A program made the translations under genes and the position numbers. 61,737 nucleotides of DNA, taken from the NCBI GenBank assembly GCA_030656075.1, contig JAUSOT010000147.1, positions 1 to 61,737 of the forward strand, read 5' to 3'. The stretch is from Candidatus Cloacimonadales bacterium. GTDB lineage: Bacteria > Cloacimonadota > Cloacimonadia > Cloacimonadales > TCS61. The notes beneath the pieces are model-generated. The model made no database searches. It saw nothing but the letters and a program-made list of their open reading frames with translations, and was not told the DNA's origin. Positions 5,390 to 61,737 of this stretch are shown here, piece by piece (within the stretch, counting starts at the first letter, position 1; each line of letters opens with the position of its first letter).

Positions 5390-7207
5390 ATGTTTAATGC
5401 ATTCAAACGAACATTTTTTTTAGTTTTTGTTTTAATGTTAATCTCAGTAAATCTGGCAGCATCTCAATTCCTGCTGCAAAAGGGAAACCTATTTCGGGAA
5501 GACCGCTACGTAAGCATCGATCTTGAAACGATCAATCAAATTCAGGTTGTCTTCAGAATTTCGCCTGATGGCTGGTCATTTCCCAAAGACATTAAAGGGA
5601 TTGTGAAGGAAAACCTTTTTATAAAGCAAAATAATAAGAAGATCGCTGCCCTGGAAACTCAAGTTCTGGAAAATTATCTGCTCGCCAGTTTTTCGAGAAA
5701 TGATGTGAACATTTACCAGGAATTCTATTTTGAAAACCAGGAATTTTCAGAAAAATTTACCATTCGGGAAGAGTCCTGGCCTCGCTACGAAGAGTTTTTT
5801 CAATTTTATAACACTGCCCTGGAACAAATTACAGCCCTGGATTATATCGCTGCCTTTTCTACTTTAACACCTTTTTTACAGAATGCACCGGAAATCGAAG
5901 AATTCAGTATCACTGAAAAAGCACAGCAGAAAGCAGAAGACTGCCTAAAAAATTATTTCACTCAAAAGGAAATGTTCCTCAATACTCACAAATTGAAGCA
6001 TAAAACACAGATTAATGAACAGACTCTGGCAGAAATCGATTCTCTCATTCAAGCGATGAATTCCACCAATGAACTTTTCCAGCAGTATTATGTTTTTTCC
6101 CCGCAATCCGGCCTGCCGGAAAATTCCAGTAAATTGATTACGGATTATCAGGAATATCTGCAAAATCTGAAAACAAGATATTATAATGAAGTTCAGGATA
6201 TGCTCGCCAATTCTGATTACGGGAATAATAAATTTAAACTGATTCTCGATACACTGGTTCGATCTCTTTGCTATAAAGATTCTTTCTGCCTGATTTCAGA
6301 TTATAAAATTGCAACTCTAAATTATGTGCATTCCAATAAAGAACTTTCGGCAAAACTGAATAATCTGGAATGGATGAGCGACTTTGAACGGCTTGTGCTG
6401 GCTGTAAATTTGAACGTAAAAAATGATGGTATGTTCCTGCAGGCTGCCTGCATGGAAAGCTTGAAAGCTAAAGATAATACAGCTCCCCAGTCCTATTATG
6501 CCATTTTGCAATGCCTGAATTGTGCTTTGAATGCCAATTGGACTGATTTCACGATCAATATGAATACAGCTATCGACAGATGTTCGGATCGGGAACTTCT
6601 TTATTTTCTGGAAAGAATGAAAATAGCCTACATGGCTAAAATCATTGATAATATTCAGCCAAACGTGATAATTGAGATCAATCTTGGTTGGAAATATCTG
6701 GAAAAGAATGATTTTGAAAATGCCAAAAATTCCCTCCTGAAAGCAAAAAACTGGGACAGCAGTTTCGCTCTGACTGATTTCCTGCTGGGGAAAGTTTGTA
6801 TCAGCACCGGCGAATTCAGCAAAGCTGAAATTTATCTTGATAGCGCTATCCAGAAACAACCTCCATATTTAGAGCCATTATATACAAAATTAGATCTTTT
6901 GATCAAAAATGGCAAATACAAAGAAGCTGTCGATCTGATCAATGCCGGAATAACTTCCAATTCCTGGTTCAAGTTTTTCATGATCGGTAGATTGTACACC
7001 CTGCAAATGGACTACGCCAAAGCGAAGAAATATCTCGAAATGGCTCTTGATATCAATGCTTACAACTTTGACCTGCTGATTTTTCTGGGAGACACCTATA
7101 AAGAACTCAATGATAAAACCGGAGCTGAAAATTATTATAAACAAGCCGGTTCTTTAGATCCGGAAAACGATGTATTCTCTTCCAGGCTGCAAATGCTGAA
7201 TAATTAA
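5390..7207 (+). CDS. Secreted or membrane-anchored TPR-repeat protein
   Basis: N-terminal hydrophobic leader FFLVFVLMLISVNLAA. The C-terminal third has TPR-like repeats (NAKNSLLKAKNWD, GEFSKAEIYLDSAIQKQP, YAKAKKYLEMALDIN, GAENYYKQAGSLDP). Confidence 0.6.
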   Translation: MFNAFKRTFFLVFVLMLISVNLAASQFLLQKGNLFREDRYVSIDLETINQIQVVFRISPDGWSFPKDIKGIVKENLFIKQNNKKIAALETQVLENYLLASFSRNDVNIYQEFYFENQEFSEKFTIREESWPRYEEFFQFYNTALEQITALDYIAAFSTLTPFLQNAPEIEEFSITEKAQQKAEDCLKNYFTQKEMFLNTHKLKHKTQINEQTLAEIDSLIQAMNSTNELFQQYYVFSPQSGLPENSSKLITDYQEYLQNLKTRYYNEVQDMLANSDYGNNKFKLILDTLVRSLCYKDSFCLISDYKIATLNYVHSNKELSAKLNNLEWMSDFERLVLAVNLNVKNDGMFLQAACMESLKAKDNTAPQSYYAILQCLNCALNANWTDFTINMNTAIDRCSDRELLYFLERMKIAYMAKIIDNIQPNVIIEINLGWKYLEKNDFENAKNSLLKAKNWDSSFALTDFLLGKVCISTGEFSKAEIYLDSAIQKQPPYLEPLYTKLDLLIKNGKYKEAVDLINAGITSNSWFKFFMIGRLYTLQMDYAKAKKYLEMALDINAYNFDLLIFLGDTYKELNDKTGAENYYKQAGSLDPENDVFSSRLQMLNN

Positions 7208-7224
7208 TTATCTGATTTTGTATC

Positions 7225-8109
7225 TTGAGTCAGTTTTTAATTAAGTCGATAATTGCCGGAAAACTGCTTGGTAACGTAAAACAACCGGATGATTGGTTCG
7301 GTTTGAAATACAACCTGAACCTCTATCGCGGCTGCCAGCATCAATGCATCTATTGCGATACCCGCAGCGAATGCTACCAGATCGAAGATTTTGATCATGA
7401 AATTCTTTATAAAGAAAACGCCATCGAACTGCTGAGAAAAGAACTCTCCACCAAACGCGTGAAAGGTACTATCGGACTTGGCTCCATGAATGATCCATAT
7501 CAGCCGGTTGAAACTGAACTGCAACTTACTCATCGTGCTTTGGAAGTGATCGCTGAATTCGGTTTTCCGCTGCACATCATCACCAAAAGCAGTCATATTT
7601 TGAACGATTTAGAAATTTTGAAAAAGATAAATCTGGTTTATACTACCGTCAGTTTTACTATCACCACATCGGATGATGCTCTGGCAAAGATTTTAGAACC
7701 GGGTGCCTCACTTCCATCCGAAAGATACAAAGCGATGAAAATTCTTTCCGATAATGGCATTCAGGTTGGCATTTCCATGATGCCGATCCTGCCATTCATT
7801 GAAGATAATGTGGAAAACATTACAGCAATTCTGGAGAAAGCTCATCAGGCAGGCGTGAAATATATCATTCCGGCTTTTGGCATGACGATGCGGGATCGTC
7901 AACGCGAATATTTTTATCGAAAACTGGATGAACATTTTCCAGATTTGAAGCAAAAATATATTCGGAAATTTGGTGAAAATTATAGTTGTTCTGCTAATAA
8001 TCACGAGAAACTGAAAAACACATTTGATGCTTTATGCCGGCAATTCGGTATCTCTCCTAAGATCATTCCGTATCGAAGTGATGTGGGTGAACAGTTGAGT
8101 TTGTTTTAA
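7225..8109 (+). CDS. Radical SAM protein (SplB/DNA-photolyase-like family)
   Basis: CX3CX2C cluster motif in YRGCQHQCIYCDTR. Overall size and layout match Rv2578c/SplB-type radical SAM proteins. TTG start taken from the ORF track, so the start is uncertain. Confidence 0.7.
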   Translation: MSQFLIKSIIAGKLLGNVKQPDDWFGLKYNLNLYRGCQHQCIYCDTRSECYQIEDFDHEILYKENAIELLRKELSTKRVKGTIGLGSMNDPYQPVETELQLTHRALEVIAEFGFPLHIITKSSHILNDLEILKKINLVYTTVSFTITTSDDALAKILEPGASLPSERYKAMKILSDNGIQVGISMMPILPFIEDNVENITAILEKAHQAGVKYIIPAFGMTMRDRQREYFYRKLDEHFPDLKQKYIRKFGENYSCSANNHEKLKNTFDALCRQFGISPKIIPYRSDVGEQLSLF

Positions 8110-9238: not shown

Positions 9239-9563
9239 CATGTTTGAACCAAAATTCTTCAGAAAGACGTTTTGAAACACTGTCTTAGCGAGTTGCCTTT
9301 CTGCGGTATCAAACGACTTGTCGCGCCGAAGTATTTAAAGACGGGAGCAATTTCTATCGGATGTTCTTTCATGTATTCTCCGACACCCTTCTCATAGATA
9401 GGAGAAGGGCTGGGGATGAGGTTGAGAAACGAGATTCTTCGAAAGAAAGATAGAGAGAATTTCTCAGAAAGACGTTTTGATTTAATCATTATTCCAAAAG
9501 TTCTTGTCATAGCTTGTTAAATTTTTCAGTTTGTTTCGGATAAAAAAATATTGGAGTTAGATT

Positions 9564-11984
9564 TTGAAAAAACTAATTTTCATTTTAATTATCGGGAGTA
9601 TTCTTATGAATATTTCAGCCAACGAAAGCGGTTACAAATTGCCTCCGCAAAATATTCAGGATATCTTTGATAAAGAGCGTCCACCCTATTATTCTTTCGT
9701 TCGCTTCACACAGCTTGGACTGGAAACAAATTATCAGCGCTATCAAACACTTGAGCAAATCAGCGATCCAACTGTGAAACTGGCCGGAGAAGATATTTCT
9801 ATCAAACTGAACGCTCCGGTTAAACAATATCCGCTTAATTATTTTGCCATTCATAATTTTGAAACAGACGAAAAGATAGTGATTGATTTTCCGGAAAATA
9901 TCAAAATCAGGGAATACAAACTTTCCCACGATCATAAACAGATCGCTTTTTCTTACGAAACAGATATGGGAGTGCAGATTTTAGTTGTGGAAACAGCAAC
10001 CGGAAAAATTACGTATTTTGATAATGTTCTGTTAAATGATGCTTTCGGCGATGAACCTTTCTGGTGGATGAGCGACAACAATACTTTGCTGCTTAAAGTC
10101 ATTCCAAAAGGAAGGGGAACAATGCCGCAGCGTTCTCTGATTCCTGAATCTCCAATTATGGAAGAAACCAGTGGAGCTGTTAGTACAAATCGTACTTATC
10201 AGAATTTATTGCAGGATAAATATGACGAAACACTTTTCGATTATTTTTTCACATCGCAGATCGCAACCTTGAATTCAAAAAACAAGAAACTAAAATTGAT
10301 CACTGCTCCTGCCGTTTGGGATGAGATTAAGCTATCTCCTAACAATCAATATATTCTCACCAACAAAATCAATAAACCATATTCCTACCAGGTTCCTTAC
10401 TATCACTTTCCACAGACATTTCAGGTTTTGAACAGGAAGGGAGAAAATATAAAAATGCTTTATGCCCGTCCTTTACAAGACCAGATTCCAATTGGCGGAA
10501 CAAAAAAGGGACCCCGGTTGTACAAATGGCAGCCGTTGAAAGGAGCAAGTCTGGTCTGGGTGGAAGCTTTGGATGAAGGCGATCCCAAAGTCGAGGTTTC
10601 ACACCGCGATAAGATCATGCGCCTGCAAGCACCTTTCCAAAATGAGCCGGAAGAAATATTCAAAACTACCTATCGCTATTCCAGCATTCAGTGGTCGGAA
10701 GCGGAAGATGAACTGATCTATGGAGAATATGACCGCGACCGCATCTGGAACCGATATTGGCTTTATCAGATCGGTTCGGACGAACCGCAATTGCTTTTTG
10801 ATATGAGCCGGCAGGAACGATATAATTTTCCTGGTAAACTGGTGATGAAAAAAACAGCGAGTGGAGAAGAAGTCTTCATCAAACAAAATAATATCGTGTA
10901 TTTAGATAACGAAATTGGGGCAACTCCGGAAGGAAATTTTCCTTATCTTGCCAAATTAAATCTTGAGACAAAAGAAAAAGAAATCCTCTGGCAATGCCAA
11001 CCCGATCATTACGAAACGTTTCTGTCTTTTTTGAATGAGGATTTGAATAAAATAGTTATCTGCAGCGAAAGCAGCATCAAATATCGAGATTATTTTTTCA
11101 TCGATCTGGTAACGAAGCAAAAGATTCAAATCACAAATTATCACAATCCTTATCCTGAAATGACAGATTTAAAAACTGAACTCATCGCGTATTCTCGCCA
11201 GGATGGCATTCCGCTTTCCGGAACCCTGATATTGCCGGCAAACTACCGGGAAGGGGATCGGCTTCCACTCATTTTTGAAGCTTATCCGGAAGAATTCGCT
11301 GATGCTTCTACGGCCGGACAAATAACTGGTTCGCCTTTTCGTTTTCCCAATTTCTGGGGAGCTTCCATCCGCTATTTTGTCTTGGAAGGTTACGCTGTTC
11401 TGATGAACGCTTCCATCCCGATCGTAGGTGACCCGGAAACGGTGAACGAAACTTTTATCACTCAAACCGTCAGCAGTGTTCAGGCTGCGATCGATTACCT
11501 CGATCAGCGCGGCATTATCGATCCGGACAGAGTTGGCATCACCGGTCACAGTTATGGTGCATTCATGGTAGCAAATGTGCTGGCACACAGTGATATTTGC
11601 GCTGCCGGAATTGCCAAGAGCGGTGCTTACAACCGTACTCTCACACCATTCGGTTTCCAGAGCGAACGTCGCACTTTGTGGGAAGCAAAAGATTTTTACA
11701 TGGAAGTCTCACCTTTCATGCAGGCGGAAAAGATCAACGAACCGATCTTGCTTATTCATGGAGAAGATGATCCCAATTCCGGCACATTTCCTCTCCAATC
11801 CAAACGCTTTTACCAAGCTCTAAAAGGCAACGGCGCAACCGCCAGATTAGTTATATTACCAAAAGAAGGACACGGCTATTTTGCACGTGAATCGCTGCTG
11901 CACGTGTTGGCGGAACAACTCGAGTGGTTTGATAAATATGTGAAGAACAGGAAATCCGGCTCCGATAAACTTCGTCGGGATTAA
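9564..11984 (+). CDS. S9 family (prolyl oligopeptidase/dipeptidyl peptidase-like) serine peptidase, secreted
   Basis: Signal peptide MKKLIFILIIGSILMNISA. Long beta-propeller-like N-terminal region. C-terminal alpha/beta hydrolase with nucleophile elbow GHSYGAFM, plus LLIHGEDDPN and EGHGY. Confidence 0.8.
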   Translation: MKKLIFILIIGSILMNISANESGYKLPPQNIQDIFDKERPPYYSFVRFTQLGLETNYQRYQTLEQISDPTVKLAGEDISIKLNAPVKQYPLNYFAIHNFETDEKIVIDFPENIKIREYKLSHDHKQIAFSYETDMGVQILVVETATGKITYFDNVLLNDAFGDEPFWWMSDNNTLLLKVIPKGRGTMPQRSLIPESPIMEETSGAVSTNRTYQNLLQDKYDETLFDYFFTSQIATLNSKNKKLKLITAPAVWDEIKLSPNNQYILTNKINKPYSYQVPYYHFPQTFQVLNRKGENIKMLYARPLQDQIPIGGTKKGPRLYKWQPLKGASLVWVEALDEGDPKVEVSHRDKIMRLQAPFQNEPEEIFKTTYRYSSIQWSEAEDELIYGEYDRDRIWNRYWLYQIGSDEPQLLFDMSRQERYNFPGKLVMKKTASGEEVFIKQNNIVYLDNEIGATPEGNFPYLAKLNLETKEKEILWQCQPDHYETFLSFLNEDLNKIVICSESSIKYRDYFFIDLVTKQKIQITNYHNPYPEMTDLKTELIAYSRQDGIPLSGTLILPANYREGDRLPLIFEAYPEEFADASTAGQITGSPFRFPNFWGASIRYFVLEGYAVLMNASIPIVGDPETVNETFITQTVSSVQAAIDYLDQRGIIDPDRVGITGHSYGAFMVANVLAHSDICAAGIAKSGAYNRTLTPFGFQSERRTLWEAKDFYMEVSPFMQAEKINEPILLIHGEDDPNSGTFPLQSKRFYQALKGNGATARLVILPKEGHGYFARESLLHVLAEQLEWFDKYVKNRKSGSDKLRRD

Positions 11985-56344: not shown

Positions 56345-58150
56345 ATGGGAAAAACCTTTGTAGAAAAAATTCTGGGAGCGGAAACTGGAGCAATCGTTTT
56401 TCGCAAACCCGATATCATTCTCACTCACGATAACACAGCCAGCATCAAAGTCACGTTCAATAAAATGGGTGGAACCAAAGTTGCCGATCCTGATCAGCTT
56501 TTGGTGGTACTCGATCACAACGCTCCGCCCACCGATGCCAAGCTGGCAAATCAGTATCAAACAATCCGCAATTTCGTCAAAGATCAGGGCATCAAAAAAT
56601 TCCATGACGTCTGCGACGGCATCTGTCACCAGGTGATGAGCTATCATGCCAAACCCGGCATGATCATCGTGGGCAGCGACAGCCATACCTGCACTGCCGG
56701 CGCTTTTAATGCTCTCGCTGCCGGTATCGACCGCACAGAATCGGCCGGAATCTGGAAACGTGGTGAAACCTGGTTCCGTGTTCCCAACACACTCAAAGTA
56801 ACATTGAAAGGAAATCTGCAGTCCGGCGTTTATGCCAAAGATATTTCACTTTGGATAATTGGTATGATTGGCTCGGATGGTGCTAATTATATGAGTATCG
56901 AATTTCACGGTGATGGTGTGAAAACACTTTCCATTTCCCAAAGAATGACCCTGGCCAATCTGGCATCGGAAATGGGTGCTAAAAATGCTGTCTTTCCCGC
57001 TGATGAAGTTCTGGAAGAATTTCTTAAAACCCAAACTTCCGAAGTTTTGGAAACTTCGGAAGTTTTGAAGAACGGCATCTGGGCAGACAAAGATGCCAAA
57101 TATGAAAGAGAGATCGAGATCGATTTAGATAAAATTTTCCCGCTGGTGGCTGCGCCGCATCATGTGGATAATGTGAAAGCTGTTTCAGAAGTGCAGGGAA
57201 TAAAACTTAATCAAGGTTTGATCGGAACCTGTACGAATGGCAGATTGGAAGATTTGGGAATTGCCGCGAAAATCTTGAAAGGCAAAAAAGTAGCGGATGG
57301 ATTCCAACTCTTAGTGATCCCAGCCAGTCGCGAAATTTATTTGGAAGCGATGGAAAAAGGTTATATCAAATCCTTCATCAACTCAGGCGCCAGCGTGCTG
57401 GCAGTTTCCTGCGGTCCGTGTTTGGGAACAGGTCAGGGCATTCCTGCTGATGGTTACACGGTAATTTCCACAGCCAACCGCAATTTCAAAGGCCGCATGG
57501 GAAACAAAGAAGCACAGATTTATCTGGCTTCTCCGGCCTGCGTTGCTTTTAGTGCAATTGCCGGTGAGATCACCGATCCGCGTGGCAAAGCATTTAATGA
57601 TAAATTCCCCTATCCCAAAGCACAAAGTTCAACGGTGGATATCGAACCGGATGATAACAGAAAAGAAAAGGGTGTCTGGAATTATTCCGATGTGGATAAC
57701 CTGAACACCGATCAGATGTTTGCCGGAAATCTCACTTACCAGGTTCTCAGTTCCGATCCTGCTGCCATCATGCCCCATCTTTTCGTGGATTTTGATGAGA
57801 ACTTCGTTAAGAAAGTACAAGCTGGAGATGTGATCATTGCCGGTGAAAATTTCGGCTGCGGCAGTTCGCGTGAACATCCCGCAGTTGGTCTGGCTCATGC
57901 CGGGATAAAAGCCGTCATCGTCAAGTCGGTGAATCGAATATTCTATCGTTCTTCGGTAAATCAGGGTCTGCCAATTATTGTGCTACCGGAAGTGGTAGAT
58001 GCTTACAAACAAGGTGATAAAGTATTTGTGGATATGGAAAACGGTTCTATTAAAATCAATGAAAAAGAATTCAAATTCGCTCCGCTTCCTAAAGAATTGA
58101 TGGCAATTTTCGAAATGAAGGGATTGGTTAACTGGATGAAGGAAAATTAA
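56345..58150 (+). CDS. Aconitase-superfamily hydratase, fused large + small subunits, paralog 2
   Basis: MGKTFVEKILGA, LDHNAP, GSDSHT, GTCTNGR, SCGPCLG. Swivel domain VWNYSDVDNLNTDQM...NFGCGSSREHPA. Start at ATG 56345 after ggaggaa. Confidence 0.82.
   Translation: MGKTFVEKILGAETGAIVFRKPDIILTHDNTASIKVTFNKMGGTKVADPDQLLVVLDHNAPPTDAKLANQYQTIRNFVKDQGIKKFHDVCDGICHQVMSYHAKPGMIIVGSDSHTCTAGAFNALAAGIDRTESAGIWKRGETWFRVPNTLKVTLKGNLQSGVYAKDISLWIIGMIGSDGANYMSIEFHGDGVKTLSISQRMTLANLASEMGAKNAVFPADEVLEEFLKTQTSEVLETSEVLKNGIWADKDAKYEREIEIDLDKIFPLVAAPHHVDNVKAVSEVQGIKLNQGLIGTCTNGRLEDLGIAAKILKGKKVADGFQLLVIPASREIYLEAMEKGYIKSFINSGASVLAVSCGPCLGTGQGIPADGYTVISTANRNFKGRMGNKEAQIYLASPACVAFSAIAGEITDPRGKAFNDKFPYPKAQSSTVDIEPDDNRKEKGVWNYSDVDNLNTDQMFAGNLTYQVLSSDPAAIMPHLFVDFDENFVKKVQAGDVIIAGENFGCGSSREHPAVGLAHAGIKAVIVKSVNRIFYRSSVNQGLPIIVLPEVVDAYKQGDKVFVDMENGSIKINEKEFKFAPLPKELMAIFEMKGLVNWMKEN
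57033..57065. repeat. Inverted pair of aaacttccgaagttt palindromes embedded in frame in the hydratase gene
   Basis: aaacttccgaagttt-tgg-aaacttcggaagttt, translated as TSEVLETSEVL. The same units occur intergenically at 40390, 40431 and 53349. Paralog 1 lacks these residues. Confidence 0.88.
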
Positions 58151-58258
58151 GCTAAACCGCAAAGAGCGCGAAGACGCAAAGTTAAAATCTGTGCGTTTCC
58201 GTGAAAATCCGTGAGCTAAAAATATCAGTTCCCATGCTGAATAGTGTGGGAACATTTT

Positions 58259-58483
58259 CTATAAATTTAAGATGTAGGTATCTCTTTCATCGGAAAGTGA
58301 ACACATTCCACAGCCCGTGCAGCCTGTTTCACACTCCAGGTGTTTTCTGCTGATCTTACCCTTTTTCACCAGTTCATTCAGCATTCCCTGCATGGCAGAT
58401 TTATCAATATTAAAATGCAGAGAAAGATCGCTCAAAGAGATGGTCTTTCTTTCTTCAAATAATTGCAGAATTTGTAGCAGCAT
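58259..58483 (-). CDS. feoC: FeoC-like winged-helix protein with C-terminal Cys cluster
   Basis: 74-aa wHTH (LSDLSLHFNIDKSAMQGMLNELVKKGKI) followed by C-X3-C-X2-C-X2-C (CETGCTGCGMC). TAATG overlap with the upstream feoA-like gene. Confidence 0.6.
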   Translation of the reverse strand: MLLQILQLFEERKTISLSDLSLHFNIDKSAMQGMLNELVKKGKISRKHLECETGCTGCGMCSLSDERDTYILNL

Positions 58484-58770
58484 TATTTAATGCGAATTCG
58501 ACCGGCGAGTTCGCGCGGGATTATGTAGCGTGAATCTCCCACTCCGATCACAATGTTTTGATTGTCCTCTTCATTTTTATGAACCGTGATCACGCCACCG
58601 CGATAGAGCCCCATTTCCATGGTTTTCAGGTCGGGATTATTGAGGATGATGTATTTCTTTCCAACTTCAGCTTCCGTTAAAAGAGAAGCATCCCGGCAGG
58701 AACGATGCTGATGCTTTCCGCATTCTTTACCGCCGCCGCCTTTGCCAAATCCTCTGCCTATTCCAAACAT
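58483..58770 (-). CDS. FeoA-domain protein with Gly/Cys/His-rich N-terminal extension
   Basis: C-terminal FeoA fold (GKKYIILNNPD...MEMGLYRGGVITVHKN...IVIGVGDSRYIIPRELAGRIRI). N-terminal MFGIGRGFGKGGGGKECGKHQHRSC. Confidence 0.65.
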   Translation of the reverse strand: MFGIGRGFGKGGGGKECGKHQHRSCRDASLLTEAEVGKKYIILNNPDLKTMEMGLYRGGVITVHKNEEDNQNIVIGVGDSRYIIPRELAGRIRIK

Positions 58771-58827
58771 TTTCAGTCTCCATTTTTTTATGAATAAACT
58801 AACCTAAAACCAACGAGTTGCAAACTG
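58704..58827. repeat. Left copy of a >=123-bp perfect direct repeat (5' end and upstream region of the feoA-like gene)
   Basis: gatgctgatgctttccgcattctttaccgcc...aaccaacgagttgcaaactg matches 61615..61737 over every base that can be compared. The right copy is cut by the window end. Confidence 0.92.
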
Positions 58828-59189
58828 TTCTCATTTACCGCCTGTGTCAAGTTTGGTCTTTATATTTCTCCTTCATTTCCCATTATTAAGGATTATTCTC
58901 GCTTAACCCTGCCAGCGTTTCATTCAAAGAATCTTCCTGCTTAACGCTGTCAGGGTTTCTTTCAAAGCATCATTTGCATCTTTTGTAAATTGCTCACCCA
59001 AGTCGAGTTTTTGAAGAACCCGACTCGATTGAGATATTGTGCTTGACTGCTAACATTCGATTTTATAAATAATTCCATATAATAAAAATGAAAGCAGAAA
59101 TAAGCAATGAAACGAAGAGGAAGGTGGTTGTGATGGGTAAAAGAAAAAATAAACACCATGGCATTTTGAAACCGAATCATTATCATATT

Positions 59190-59259
59190 AAAACGAATTA
59201 TATCGTATCATTGCACATCGAATATTTATCGGATAAAAACGAATCATATCGTATCACTG
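59190..59259 (+). promoter_or_regulatory. Direct 24-bp repeats (candidate operator or iterons) upstream of the Fic gene
   Basis: aaaacgaattatatcgtatcattg (59190..59213) and aaaacgaatcatatcgtatcactg (59236..59259), 46 bp apart. A weaker third copy is near 59168. ttggtatattt lies just before ATG 59286. Confidence 0.4.
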
Positions 59260-59285
59260 ATAACTAAAATTGGTATATTTGTTTT

Positions 59286-60326
59286 ATGGAAAATATAGTG
59301 CACACTTTCAAACTAAACCTCGACTGGAAATTAGTAGGACTAATTAGCCAAATTGATAGATTTGATGCTTCGTGGGCTTCAATAGAAAAAAAAGAAGGTC
59401 AAAGTTTAAAACAACTAAAATCAATCGCAACGGTAAGAAGTGTTGGGGCTTCGACTCGAATTGAAGGTTCCAAAATGAGTGACAAAGAAGTTGAAGTTCT
59501 ACTCAAACAAATTGATATTACAAAACTTTCAGATAGAGATTCACAGGAAGTTGTGGGATACTTTGAAACTTTAGATATTATCACGGAATCATTTGAAGAT
59601 ATTGCCATTAAAGAAAGTAGTATTAAAAATCTGCATAATATCTTAATGAAATATAGTAAAAAGGATGAATGGCATAAAGGTGATTACAAGCAACACACGA
59701 ATGCAGTTGAAGCCAGCTATCCTGATGGGGCTAAACAAATAATTTTTCAAACGGCCGAAGCAGGATTCGCAACACAAGATGCAATGAGAGCTTTAATTGA
59801 CTGGTACAAAAAAGATAAAACAACTCACCCATTAGTTAAAAGTGCATTGTTTGCGTATGAGTTTGTTAGCATTCATCCTTTTCAAGATGGAAATGGCAGA
59901 TTAAGCAGGCTCTTATCAACTTTGCTATTATTGAAAAATGGATATAAATGGATTCAATATGTAAGTTTTGAGCATGAAATTGAAAATAGGAAATCAGAAT
60001 ATTACAGAGTATTAAGAAGTTGTCAGGCTCAAAGACCAAATGAAAATGTAAATGATTGGGTAAATTTCTTTTTTGATGCATTAAAGAATATTCAAAATCA
60101 GTTATTAAATAAACTGGAACAAAGCGGTATTGAGACACAATTATCACCAAGAGAAAAATCTATTATCACATTTATTGGCAATAATCCTGGATGTAAATCA
60201 GGAGATATTGCTAAAAAGCTTGATATACCAAGCCCAACCGTAAAGAGAATTCTACCTGAACTGATAAATAAAAATTTAATTGAAAAGCATGGAACTGGAC
60301 CCGGGACAAATTACTCAATAAAATAA
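59286..60326 (+). CDS. Fic family protein (class II, with N-terminal inhibitory motif and C-terminal winged helix)
   Basis: Fic motif HPFQDGNGRLSRLL. Inhibitory-helix motif [ST]xxxE[GN] present as STRIEG. C-terminal wHTH (GDIAKKLDIPSPTVKRILPELINKNLI). Confidence 0.9.
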   Translation: MENIVHTFKLNLDWKLVGLISQIDRFDASWASIEKKEGQSLKQLKSIATVRSVGASTRIEGSKMSDKEVEVLLKQIDITKLSDRDSQEVVGYFETLDIITESFEDIAIKESSIKNLHNILMKYSKKDEWHKGDYKQHTNAVEASYPDGAKQIIFQTAEAGFATQDAMRALIDWYKKDKTTHPLVKSALFAYEFVSIHPFQDGNGRLSRLLSTLLLLKNGYKWIQYVSFEHEIENRKSEYYRVLRSCQAQRPNENVNDWVNFFFDALKNIQNQLLNKLEQSGIETQLSPREKSIITFIGNNPGCKSGDIAKKLDIPSPTVKRILPELINKNLIEKHGTGPGTNYSIK

Positions 60327-60331
60327 AAAAA

Positions 60332-60943
60332 ATGAAAGCAGAAATTAGCAATGAAACGAACGGCTTGACAATGGCAAAACAACAAATTGAGACAGTTAGA
60401 GAATTGATTTACTTATCATACTCGAATTTGGCAATGGCTCATACTGCTGTTGACAAGAAACAAGAGAAATATGGAGCGTTTAACTTCATGGTTAGATCCA
60501 GATTATTCAAAGGGCTTAAAGATGGAACGATGAATATGCGGACAATTTTTGACGATGAGAAAATCAAACTTCAAACTGGACAGATTTGTAATTATTGCGG
60601 TTCGACAGATAAGTTAGCTTTAGATCATATTTTTCCTCAGAAGTTTGGAGGAAAGGACGATGCAGAAAATTTAATTTTTGCATGTAGAGTTTGTAATAGT
60701 TCCAAAGGGAAAAAAGACTTAATGGAATGGATGAATTTTAGGGGTCAATTTTTACCATTAATGATAATCAGACGCTATTTAAAGCTGACTTTTAATTATT
60801 GTAATGAGAACGGACTTTTAGACAAAAAAATTGAGGATTTGAAAGACTTGGAATTACCTTTTAAAATTGACTTGTTGCCAATAGATTTTCCAAGTCCTAA
60901 CGAATTGATATTAAACATTAACGCAAATAGAAACGCCATATGA
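60332..60943 (+). CDS. HNH endonuclease
   Basis: CNYCGSTDKLALDHIFPQKFGGKDDAENLIFACRVCNSSKG (CxxC...DH...N...CxxC HNH zinc finger). Confidence 0.8.
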   Translation: MKAEISNETNGLTMAKQQIETVRELIYLSYSNLAMAHTAVDKKQEKYGAFNFMVRSRLFKGLKDGTMNMRTIFDDEKIKLQTGQICNYCGSTDKLALDHIFPQKFGGKDDAENLIFACRVCNSSKGKKDLMEWMNFRGQFLPLMIIRRYLKLTFNYCNENGLLDKKIEDLKDLELPFKIDLLPIDFPSPNELILNINANRNAI

Positions 60944-61707
60944 GTAATAAACTCGAAATTGGAGAAAAAATATTTGCGACCAAAAAGGACGCATTAAATC
61001 ACTTTAAGACTATTTTGAATTCTTACGACTTTGGAGAAAAATTAAACCAAGACGACTTTAAAAACATTTTAGAGTTACTTGAAACTCATCCAAAAGTTAA
61101 AGAAAAAATTGGTGTTGGTATAGAATGCATTAGAATTGCAAGGCTTAAATACAACACAAAATCATTTGAATTGGTGAGGACGGACAATTCGACCGAATAT
61201 TTTTCATACACAAAAAGAATAAATGCTCCGAAAACTTACTTTACAAAATTCAGCGAAGCTTGTAGACAAGCAATTCAAAAAGATTTAAGAAACGTAAAAC
61301 TTGCCTATTTTGACAAATTTTCTAAGAAAGGACAGGTAAAGTGCCAGGAGACAGGAGAACTTTTGAAATATGAAGATCTGACCGTTGACCACAGACAGCC
61401 TAACACTTTTTCAATTATTGTCGACAGATTTATAGAAGTTTACAAAATTGACATTCAAAAAATAGAGTATTTACAAGTTGACGGTGGCTCAGACGAACTT
61501 GCAGATGAAGACCTGAAACAAAAATTTAGAGAATACCATAAAGATAAATCCAATCTTCGGATTGTAAAGAAAAGTTTAAATTTAGGACGTTCATTTCAAG
61601 CGAGAGTTAAAAGGATGCTGATGCTTTCCGCATTCTTTACCGCCGCCGCCTTTGCCAAATCCTCTGCCTATTCCAAACATTTTCAGTCTCCATTTTTTTA
61701 TGAATAA
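60940..61707 (+). CDS. DUF3223 (DCL-like) domain protein with C-terminal HNH-like module; the 3' end reads into the direct repeat
   Basis: N-terminal FATKKDALNHFKTILN...ETHP...VGIECIRIA...FELVRTDNSTEYFSYTKRI resembles DUF3223. Then C..TGE...TVDHRQP...NLRIVKKSLN (H-N-N). The last about 30 codons (MLMLSAFFTAAAF...) are antisense to the duplicated feoA-like 5' end, so the true C-terminus is uncertain. ATGA overlap with the HNH gene. Confidence 0.6.
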   Translation: MSNKLEIGEKIFATKKDALNHFKTILNSYDFGEKLNQDDFKNILELLETHPKVKEKIGVGIECIRIARLKYNTKSFELVRTDNSTEYFSYTKRINAPKTYFTKFSEACRQAIQKDLRNVKLAYFDKFSKKGQVKCQETGELLKYEDLTVDHRQPNTFSIIVDRFIEVYKIDIQKIEYLQVDGGSDELADEDLKQKFREYHKDKSNLRIVKKSLNLGRSFQARVKRMLMLSAFFTAAAFAKSSAYSKHFQSPFFYE

Positions 61708-61737
61708 ACTAACCTAAAACCAACGAGTTGCAAACTG
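61615..61737. repeat. Right copy of the >=123-bp direct repeat (window ends inside it)
   Basis: Matches 58704..58827. On the minus strand it carries a second copy of the promoter-proximal region and the first 22 codons of the feoA-like gene. Confidence 0.92.

Follow-up and report, generated by a model that had tools for sequence, protein, structure and literature searches.

SoFic proteins have been reported to form a single-gene anti-phage system that acts in defence by AMPylation and abortive infection (PMC12249575). HamC, the DUF3223 accessory gene of Hachiman type II, has been reported with an unknown role (PMC8565338). Relatives of both are encoded close to the end of a 61,737-nucleotide (nt) stretch of DNA from a Candidatus Cloacimonadales bacterium (assembly GCA_030656075.1, contig JAUSOT010000147.1, positions 1 to 61,737), and this whole stretch is referred to here as the window. 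A Fic gene, an HNH endonuclease gene, and a DUF3223 gene of the 'DCL family' lie there between two exact copies of a 124-nt direct repeat that covers the start of a feoA-like gene. The locus also shares characteristics with genomic islands at gene ends, with integron cassettes, and with tandem duplications. The feature is a rearrangement joint in a defence-gene slot of decayed integrative or cassette origin, and all of its parts are of known kinds. We tentatively favour the interpretation that the repeat marks a head-to-tail duplication, or a circular equivalent, of a unit of 2,910 base pairs (bp).

The two copies of the repeat are identical at 124/124 positions by sequence comparison and their starts are 2,910 nt apart. 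The final base of the window is the last matching base of the right copy. When 58701-58703 and 61611-61613 are added, 127 nt are matched with one mismatch (AAC vs AAG). The terminal 20-50 nt were also searched across the window, and no further exact copy was found beyond the repeat pair. An exact repeat of 124 nt in 62 kb cannot have arisen by chance. An original prediction, made from the sequence alone, had described an AT-rich island bracketed by a perfect repeat. The perfect repeat is retained, but its right copy begins at 61614 and not at 61615. The repeat was also predicted to cover the promoter-proximal region and the first 22 codons of feoA, and it consists of 57 nt 5' of the feoA ATG (58770) and feoA codons 1-22, with the feoA and feoC assignments supported by Pfam. 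The minus strand of the right copy carries an open reading frame (ORF) of 29 amino acids (aa) that comprises feoA codons 1-22 and seven more. The Fic, HNH, and DUF3223 ORFs between the copies are present as described, according to Pfam. The AT-richness, which had been judged by eye, is borne out by computation. The guanine and cytosine (GC) content between the copies is 32.5% vs 40.9% for the rest of the window, which is the lowest of all 2.8-kb windows, and none of the approximately 1,120 other windows of that size is as GC-poor. The Rfam scan of 57900-61737 gave no match at E <= 1.

The left copy of the repeat is an ordinary resident feoA start that is continuous with native DNA on both sides. 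The 90% identity cluster of the feoA protein contains relatives in other assemblies that fall into two sets (L086; L087-L096). The ten contigs of the second set, which are about 83% identical to the window, exhibit an unbroken alignment from 58360 through the repeat that reaches 59166 at the furthest, and the native sequence in the relatives extends about 340 nt past the repeat. The position 58827/58828 is not an insertion boundary because the contigs of these ten relatives align continuously across it. Six of those contigs (L088, L090-L092, L094, and L096) come from Logan assemblies that were built with a k-mer length (k) of 31, and they traverse the repeat sequence without a break. The repeat is therefore single-copy in these six relatives. 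The first set is represented by a 352-kb JGI contig (L086) with DNA about 80% identical to the window. Its gene order is LemA-TPM-TPM-permease-PepM29-(166 nt)-feoA-feoC, no Fic, HNH, or DCL gene is present at its feoA locus, and it is homologous to the window from feoC across the repeat until about 58852. The positions 58828-58856 form a conserved promoter-like block in the feoA upstream region. The PepM29, permease, TPM, and LemA genes are absent from the window and may, by synteny, lie beyond its right end.

The right copy of the repeat is attached to a truncated DCL gene. The DCL family is strongly conserved and found very widely, with 812 matches that are 70-87% identical and range from Bacteroidota to Methanolobus, with listed lengths of about 228-286 aa. 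All of the aligned DCL homologues (12/12) terminate in ...SFQARVxRQKKDLTI, with or without a short tail. The DCL of the window follows these homologues up to R225 and then continues with residues encoded by the repeat, with the loss of 8-13 codons including those of QKKDLTI. The fused DCL ORF (60940-61707) thus runs on through the repeat sequence for 31 codons, as had been anticipated for the last gene of the island. The microhomology at the joint is only 1-3 nt, and the native DCL 3' ends exhibit no similarity to the repeat. Since the flanks of the two copies share only AA-G and the native DCL ends are unlike the repeat, the joint carries the signature of illegitimate recombination and not that of a recombinase site. 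The right copy thus appears to be a scar of illegitimate recombination and not the end of an element.

The sequencing run SRR13727525 was independently assembled in Logan (k = 31). One of its contigs (L002) matches 57037-58733 at 100% and ends exactly 30 nt (k-1) inside the left copy. A contig stops k-1 nt into a repeat when a second predecessor joins it, which argues for a branch at 58703/58704 in the reads. Another contig of the same run (L001) matches 59130-60436 at 100%, including the joints between the Fic gene, the short repeat D3 that is described below, and the HNH gene. Both ends of L001 (59130 and 60436) and the other end of L002 (57037) are breaks at places where the window has no repeat. 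These extra breaks suggest strain variants, or other HNH-DCL cassettes in SRR13727525 that share at least 30 nt. No contig covering 61613/61614 was found besides the window, and the exact search of the JGI metagenomes with the right half of the repeat gave no match. In exact-protein look-ups, the feoA, HNH, and DCL proteins and the predicted partial proteins (60407-60943, and 58962-59159 on the minus strand) were not on record.

An accessory-gene slot that is read away from feoA lies upstream of feoA on the Candidatus Cloacimonadota chromosome, and at its head stand the promoter and the first codons of a XerA/integron-like tyrosine integrase gene that is now dead. According to the favoured interpretation, the right copy would be a second feoA start that became attached to DCL codon 225 by illegitimate recombination. 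A head-to-tail (tandem) duplication of 58704-61613 would produce one such new joint, and the same joint would arise from a unit that was excised as a circle or re-inserted by homologous recombination. The assembler would then have come back to sequence placed earlier and ended the contig. Everything that is visible can be explained by a single illegitimate joint. A duplication is favoured because it fits the intact feoA gene, the 100% identity of the copies, and the lack of the repeat in the relatives. The event appears to be recent, given that the copies are identical at 124/124 positions, and it appears to be specific to this lineage, in whose relatives the repeat sequence is single-copy. 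We infer that the right copy continues as the unit, duplicated head to tail. The recombination-generated duplication, which was the second of three options in the original prediction, is thus the best fit to a resident left copy and a right copy that joins a truncated gene. As in tandem duplications, the joint connects feoA codon 22, the proximal start of the segment, with DCL codon 225 at its distal end, there is hardly any microhomology, the copies are identical as far as visible, and the assembly graph would contain a cycle. The limit of this likeness is that the second unit is seen for 124 nt only.

Several points weigh against a duplication. The right copy is visible over only 124 nt, and its continuation into 58828 onwards is not seen. 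When a contig closes a cycle, its terminal overlap is normally as long as the k of the assembler. SPAdes and MEGAHIT use odd values of k, and a value of 124 would be reached only by IDBA-UD, at its maximum k. A SPAdes-type end at exactly 124 nt suggests that the copies differ right after base 124, as would be likelier for a duplication that is old or diverged, or for another right flank, than for a newly formed tandem copy. A further, weak point is that the records contain no DCL gene of this sequence with an intact 3' end (the 90% cluster of the protein has n = 1); the only matching sample was shallowly assembled. The succession of a gene end, a cassette, and a gene-end copy also recurs at the aconitase gene of the relatives, with an integrase of the same family at one locus at least. 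The coordinates of all features are shown in Table 1.

Table 1. Features at the right end of the window, with the basis on which each was assigned.
Feature	Positions	Strand	Basis
feoC-like winged-helix gene, 74 aa	58259..58483	-	Pfam FeoC, E 8e-15; identical protein on Logan contig L002
feoA-like gene, 95 aa, intact; first 22 codons within left repeat copy	58483..58770	-	Pfam FeoA
Left repeat copy, resident	58704..58827	.	Exact match; relatives align through both edges
Native feoA upstream region	58828..59033	.	Homologous in L087-L096 (~83%); 58828-58852 also in L086
Promoter and first 17 codons of decayed XerA/integron-integrase-like tyrosine recombinase gene	59034..59138	+	Match to L014
Four CGAATnATnATC-type repeats, 22-24 nt spacing (families D2, D4)	59173..59259	.	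Directly upstream of Fic gene
Class II Fic (AMPylase-type) gene with C-terminal winged helix, SoFic-like	59286..60326	+	Pfam Fic and MarR/HTH
D3 right copy: second integrase-start remnant, -9 to codon 10, fused to HNH upstream region	60323..60360	+	
HNH endonuclease gene, 190 aa from probable start ATG 60371; ORF open from 60332	60371..60943	+	Pfam HNH, E 3e-12
DUF3223 / 'DCL family' (HamC-like) gene, codons 1-225, truncated	60940..61613	+	Pfam DUF3223; PADLOC HamC2, E 4e-41
Novel junction, DCL codon 225 to feoA codon 22 (antisense)	61613..61614	.	Comparison with both flanks and native DCL 3' ends
Right ectopic repeat copy, cut by window end	61614..61737	.	Sequence comparison

The start of a tyrosine integrase gene is present twice in the island as the 38-nt repeat D3 (59079-59116 vs 60323-60360, 2 mismatches). 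The left remnant (59034-59130) matches the 5' region of an integrase gene in a related locus (L014) with 74% identity over 97 nt (E 6e-12), and the ORF of that gene matches Pfam Phage_integrase. The integrase N-terminus in the window (MKAEISNETKRKVVVMG) is colinear with that of full-length homologues (MKTEIIDETRKKLVVMGYSENTQ) and is followed by unrelated sequence, so the gene is dead after codon 17 at the left remnant. The full-length homologues have 279-295 aa and consist of Phage_int_SAM_4 and Phage_integrase domains. All of them score below the integron-integrase cut-off of TIGR02249 (215-225 bits vs 265). Three of the four tested (P0133, P0134, and P0149) pass NF040815, the model for XerA / integron integrase, with 226-237 vs a cut-off of 220, which P0132 misses (215.6 vs 220). 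The original prediction stated that no integrase or transposase is present in the island. No intact integrase is found there, yet a tyrosine integrase gene has left short 5' remnants at two places (59088-59138 and 60332-60360). The right D3 copy is identical to the version of the relatives at 33/33 nt, and the left D3 copy of the window has 1 mismatch in the 29-nt core. D3 was considered as a part of the HNH-DCL cassette and rejected, as it is confined to Cloacimonadota loci.

The contigs of the relatives either break just before D3 or have other cargo behind it, namely a DUF2806 gene (L090) or a restriction-type gene with HARE and helix-turn-helix (HTH) domains (L093). The slot is strain-variable because different genes occupy it in these relatives. 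The proximal boundary of the variable cargo lies at the integrase remnant, at about 59080-59166, and not at the repeat, and the variable DNA itself starts at about 59117-59166, behind the first 17 codons of the remnant. The third option of the original prediction, a strain-variable insertion that broke the assembly at the repeat, is thus accepted with regard to the variation of the cargo between relatives but not with regard to the position of the boundary. A low-stringency inverted-repeat search of 58700-61737 identified no convincing attC-like site.

The fused aconitase-family neighbours on the left side of the locus exhibit up to 86% protein identity to metagenome-assembled genomes of Candidatus Cloacimonadota. 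Synteny with 80 related loci ends at 58150, which is the end of the second aconitase gene, and in the relatives 0.7 to 8 kb of variable DNA separate aconitase from LemA. The DNA to the right of 58150 therefore lies in a variable region. None of the 80 related loci has a feoC, feoA, HNH, or DCL gene downstream of aconitase, and only one of them (L040) exhibits a weak Fic match (40% identity over 48 residues). Relatives carry, downstream of their aconitase gene, further copies of its final 35-247 nt that are 75-88% identical. These aconitase 3' copies flank small toxin-antitoxin cassettes (HTH and ImmA-like, MNT and HEPN) in L010, L024, L006, and L014. They are located at 7486-7644, 9562-9720, and 10481-10566 in L010, at 11692-11850 and 13798-13956 in L024, at 6539-6784 and 7469-7711 in L006, and at 11759-11793 and 12623-12657 in L014. 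The position of the MNT-HEPN cassette differs between genomes. In L014, the 35-nt aconitase 3' copy is followed about 215 nt later by the promoter and an internally deleted gene of the same integrase family. An integrase C-terminal remnant of 23 aa is located about 130 nt downstream of the aconitase gene in L016. A 428-nt direct repeat (91.6% identity; 6681-7108 and 7677-8104) surrounds the orthologue of the window gene 53419-53967 in L007, which may be another flanked single-gene unit.

These gene-end copies bear on the next interpretation, a decayed integrative island with att-type flanks, which we consider unlikely. An element with a XerA/IntI-like integrase would have integrated at the 5' end of feoA, supplying a copy of this end itself. 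The left copy, the upstream region, and the integrase remnant would then represent attL and the left arm of the element, and the right copy would be the original feoA start, pushed aside by the insertion and continuing into native upstream DNA and the PepM29 gene. The DCL 3' end and the greater part of the integrase gene would have been lost in subsequent deletions. The toxin-antitoxin cassettes between aconitase 3' copies offer a parallel, and the distance of 216 nt between the left copy and the integrase remnant matches that of about 215 nt in L014. The large JGI contig provides an empty arrangement in which PepM29 is separated from feoA by 166 nt, and its homology ends at about 58852-58856, which is about 30 nt past the repeat. 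The PepM29, permease, and LemA genes may be located immediately beyond the end of the window, which lacks them, and the argument from the assembler, with an identity block that ends at exactly 124, also agrees with such an island. However, the relatives share the upstream region and the integrase remnant, so the insertion would be old. The single-copy state of the repeat in relatives assembled at k = 31 and its 100% identity here would then call for gene conversion or a second event. The right copy also abuts a truncated gene with no clean boundary, no core-site motif is evident at either edge of the repeat, and no intact integrase is present.

The original prediction had given as its first option an integrated cassette whose att site includes the 5' end of the gene. 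This option does not hold as stated, since ten relatives align through 58827/58828 and the large JGI contig aligns to about 58852, nor does the repeat serve as an att pair, being single-copy in the six assemblies of relatives. In the comparison with insert-free genomes, the repeat copies did not coincide with insertion boundaries. A weaker version of the option is kept as the att-type island above, owing to the integrase remnants beside the left copy and to the same integrase family at the cassettes of relatives. The window shares with gene-end genomic islands a repeat over a gene end, an adjacent integrase remnant, foreign AT-rich cargo, and a distant empty site. It differs from them in that the inserted DNA is not bounded by the edge of the repeat, the cargo gene next to one copy is truncated, relatives with the same integrase remnant have a single copy of the repeat, and no intact integrase is present.

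An artefact of assembly or library preparation is improbable. The last 124 nt would have come from chimeric fragments or a wrong path, and the genome would continue into the native DCL end. The feature does lie at the very end of the contig, the joint truncates a gene, and no second assembly that contains the joint was found. On the other side, L002 from the independent assembly of SRR13727525 (k = 31) stops exactly k-1 nt into the left copy, which is difficult to account for unless another sequence joins at 58704, and the rest of the island is confirmed at 100% by L001, including the Fic-D3-HNH joints.

It is similarly improbable that Candidatus Cloacimonadota possess a cassette platform in which a XerA/integron-like recombinase stacks small cassettes, with defence or toxin-antitoxin genes, next to the ends of housekeeping genes. 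In place of an attC hairpin, every incoming cassette would carry a copy of 35-250 nt that replaces the gene end. The target would be the aconitase 3' end in the relatives and the feoA 5' end here, and the 124-nt repeat would be a working recombination site in an integron-like system of novel design.

The least probable interpretation is a short copied patch, by which about 124 nt of the feoA start would have been copied beyond DCL by template switching in repair or replication, with unrelated DNA or the rest of DCL following and the D3 copy (38 nt) as a second such patch; two island junctions do carry short copies of nearby upstream sequence (D3 and the repeat), and the identity block that ends at 124 would fit a SPAdes-type repeat edge, but the right D3 copy is closer to the relatives (33/33) than to the left D3 copy of the window, and therefore does not derive by simple copying from the left copy as it now stands, and to our knowledge templated patches of such size are not a well-documented outcome in bacteria.

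The cargo of the slot consists of defence-related genes. The Fic protein has the Fic motif HPFQDGNGRLSR at residue 197 and the inhibitory motif STRIEG at residue 56. It is assigned to class II because STRIEG is located N-terminal to the Fic core in the same chain. The PADLOC model of SoFic matches the protein over its whole length (E 4e-48), and the score against the NCBIfam SoFic equivalog is 61 bits vs a cut-off of 550. The protein is therefore a relative of SoFic and not an orthologue. It resembles SoFic in the PADLOC model match, the catalytic motif, and the class II inhibitory motif. It differs in that the equivalog cut-off is missed, no small downstream antitoxin gene is recognised, and its defence role here is putative. 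An identical copy of the Fic gene is present on L001. The CGAATnATnATC-type repeats upstream of the gene may be putative operator or binding sites for the winged helix of Fic in autoregulation. The plasmid collection gave only an 84-nt match to the Fic motif on one Bartonella plasmid, the phage collection gave no match, and no DCL relative was found among viral contigs. An origin from phages or plasmids is thus unsupported. The 2.9-kb unit was also considered as a small plasmid on account of its iteron-like CGAAT repeats and rejected, as no replication gene is present and chromosomal feoA sequence lies inside it.

The HNH and DCL genes form a pair with relatives in other phyla. The HNH gene probably starts at the same ATG as its homologues do. 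The segments 60368-60941 and 60953-61609 exhibit 91% and 87% DNA identity, respectively, to Aquipluma nitroreducens (Bacteroidota), in which DCL precedes HNH. This identity and the lowest GC content in the window indicate that the cargo is foreign. The Aquipluma pair sits between two repeats of about 135 nt with inverted ends (GGCCTATAAC...GTTATAGGCC). The repeat forms a long predicted hairpin (about -27 to -29 kcal/mol) and is present in at least 10 copies between co-oriented small genes. In the stretch that was compared (L083; AP018694, 5463718-5480416), the repeats are located at about 496, 1379, 2526, 3387, 4231, 4822, 6987, 7847, 9270, 9889, and 11201. This array contains two Gp49/HTH pairs in addition to the DCL-HNH pair and adjoins a type I restriction system. 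It resembles a sedentary integron-type cassette array. In L110 and L134, too, the DCL/HNH module has direct repeats on its flanks.

The pair thus appears to be of integron-type cassette origin. Its homologous unit in Aquipluma is bounded by hairpin repeats among co-oriented genes, as in integron cassettes, and the dead integrase of the window belongs to a XerA/integron-integrase-like family. Unlike integrons, the window exhibits no attC-like site, its gene order is permuted, and the integrase homologues score below the cut-off (222 vs 265). Among 45 loci, the order DCL-HNH is found in 10, the order HNH-DCL is found only in L130 and the window, and DCL is alone in many. At least four of the loci with DCL alone (L084, L085, L097, and L098) are deletion forms whose tail is derived from the HNH C-terminus. 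The deletion forms are located at 8655-8750 in L084, 1749-1850 in L085, 6643-6730 in L097, and 3373-3460 in L098, and these four lone DCL genes diverge after ...QKKDL, end in ...NAI*, and are followed by the same attC-like sequence. Judged from these comparisons, the DCL 3' end would be a recurrent rearrangement point, in the window as elsewhere. The ends of the HNH-DCL segment lie within about 36 nt of each other on a circular map of the cassette, which could hint at circular entry. Circular entry is not relied on, as selection for two intact genes gives the same picture.

The PADLOC HamC2 model fits the DCL of the window nearly end to end (E 4e-41), which is its likeness to HamC of Hachiman type II. 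Unlike Hachiman type II, no hamA (DUF1837) or hamB (helicase) gene is present within 58100-61737. In the window and 10 other loci, the partner of DCL is a small HNH nuclease and not HamA/HamB, and the pair moves as a cassette. The N-terminal domain of DCL matches PDB 2K0M and the C-terminal domain of plant Pol IV/V. Its C-terminal half exhibits a DH...N...H pattern by eye. The gene had been described as DUF3223-HNH, of which the DUF3223 part is recovered by Pfam but the HNH part is unconfirmed, as residues 111-225 have no Pfam match even at E 0.1.

The feoA-feoC pair itself (58259-58770) has no feoB beside it, and the aconitase gene ends at 58150. The FeoA-like protein has an N-terminal extension that is rich in glycine and contains Cys/His (GKGGGGKECGKHQHRSCR), and it is this extension that the repeat covers. 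Two 15-nt near-palindromes that are 38 nt apart (58905-58919, AACCCTGCCAGCGTT; 58943-58957, AACGCTGTCAGGGTT) are located in the feoA upstream region, and the relatives have about three such units. They may be a candidate operator of a dimeric regulator. They were also considered as attC and rejected in favour of local operator-like sites.

For annotation, the locus is not to be recorded as an att-bounded mobile island, and its DCL gene is to be treated as a truncated fusion. The end of the contig hides a duplication or an unresolved flank. The slot beside feoA is a defence-gene slot whose content differs between close strains. The HNH and DCL (HamC-like) pair crosses phyla as an integron-type cassette with about 90% DNA identity, and the free-standing two-gene form is a simple unit for anti-phage testing of DCL, whose function is unknown (PMC8565338). 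Worth recording are the HNH-DCL pair as a cassette shared between phyla, the remnants of the integrase gene by which the slot is marked, and, in the relatives, the copies of gene ends. If Candidatus Cloacimonadota do possess a cassette platform as outlined above, the gene-end copies here and at aconitase would point to a cassette-stacking mechanism that is missed by standard integron finders.

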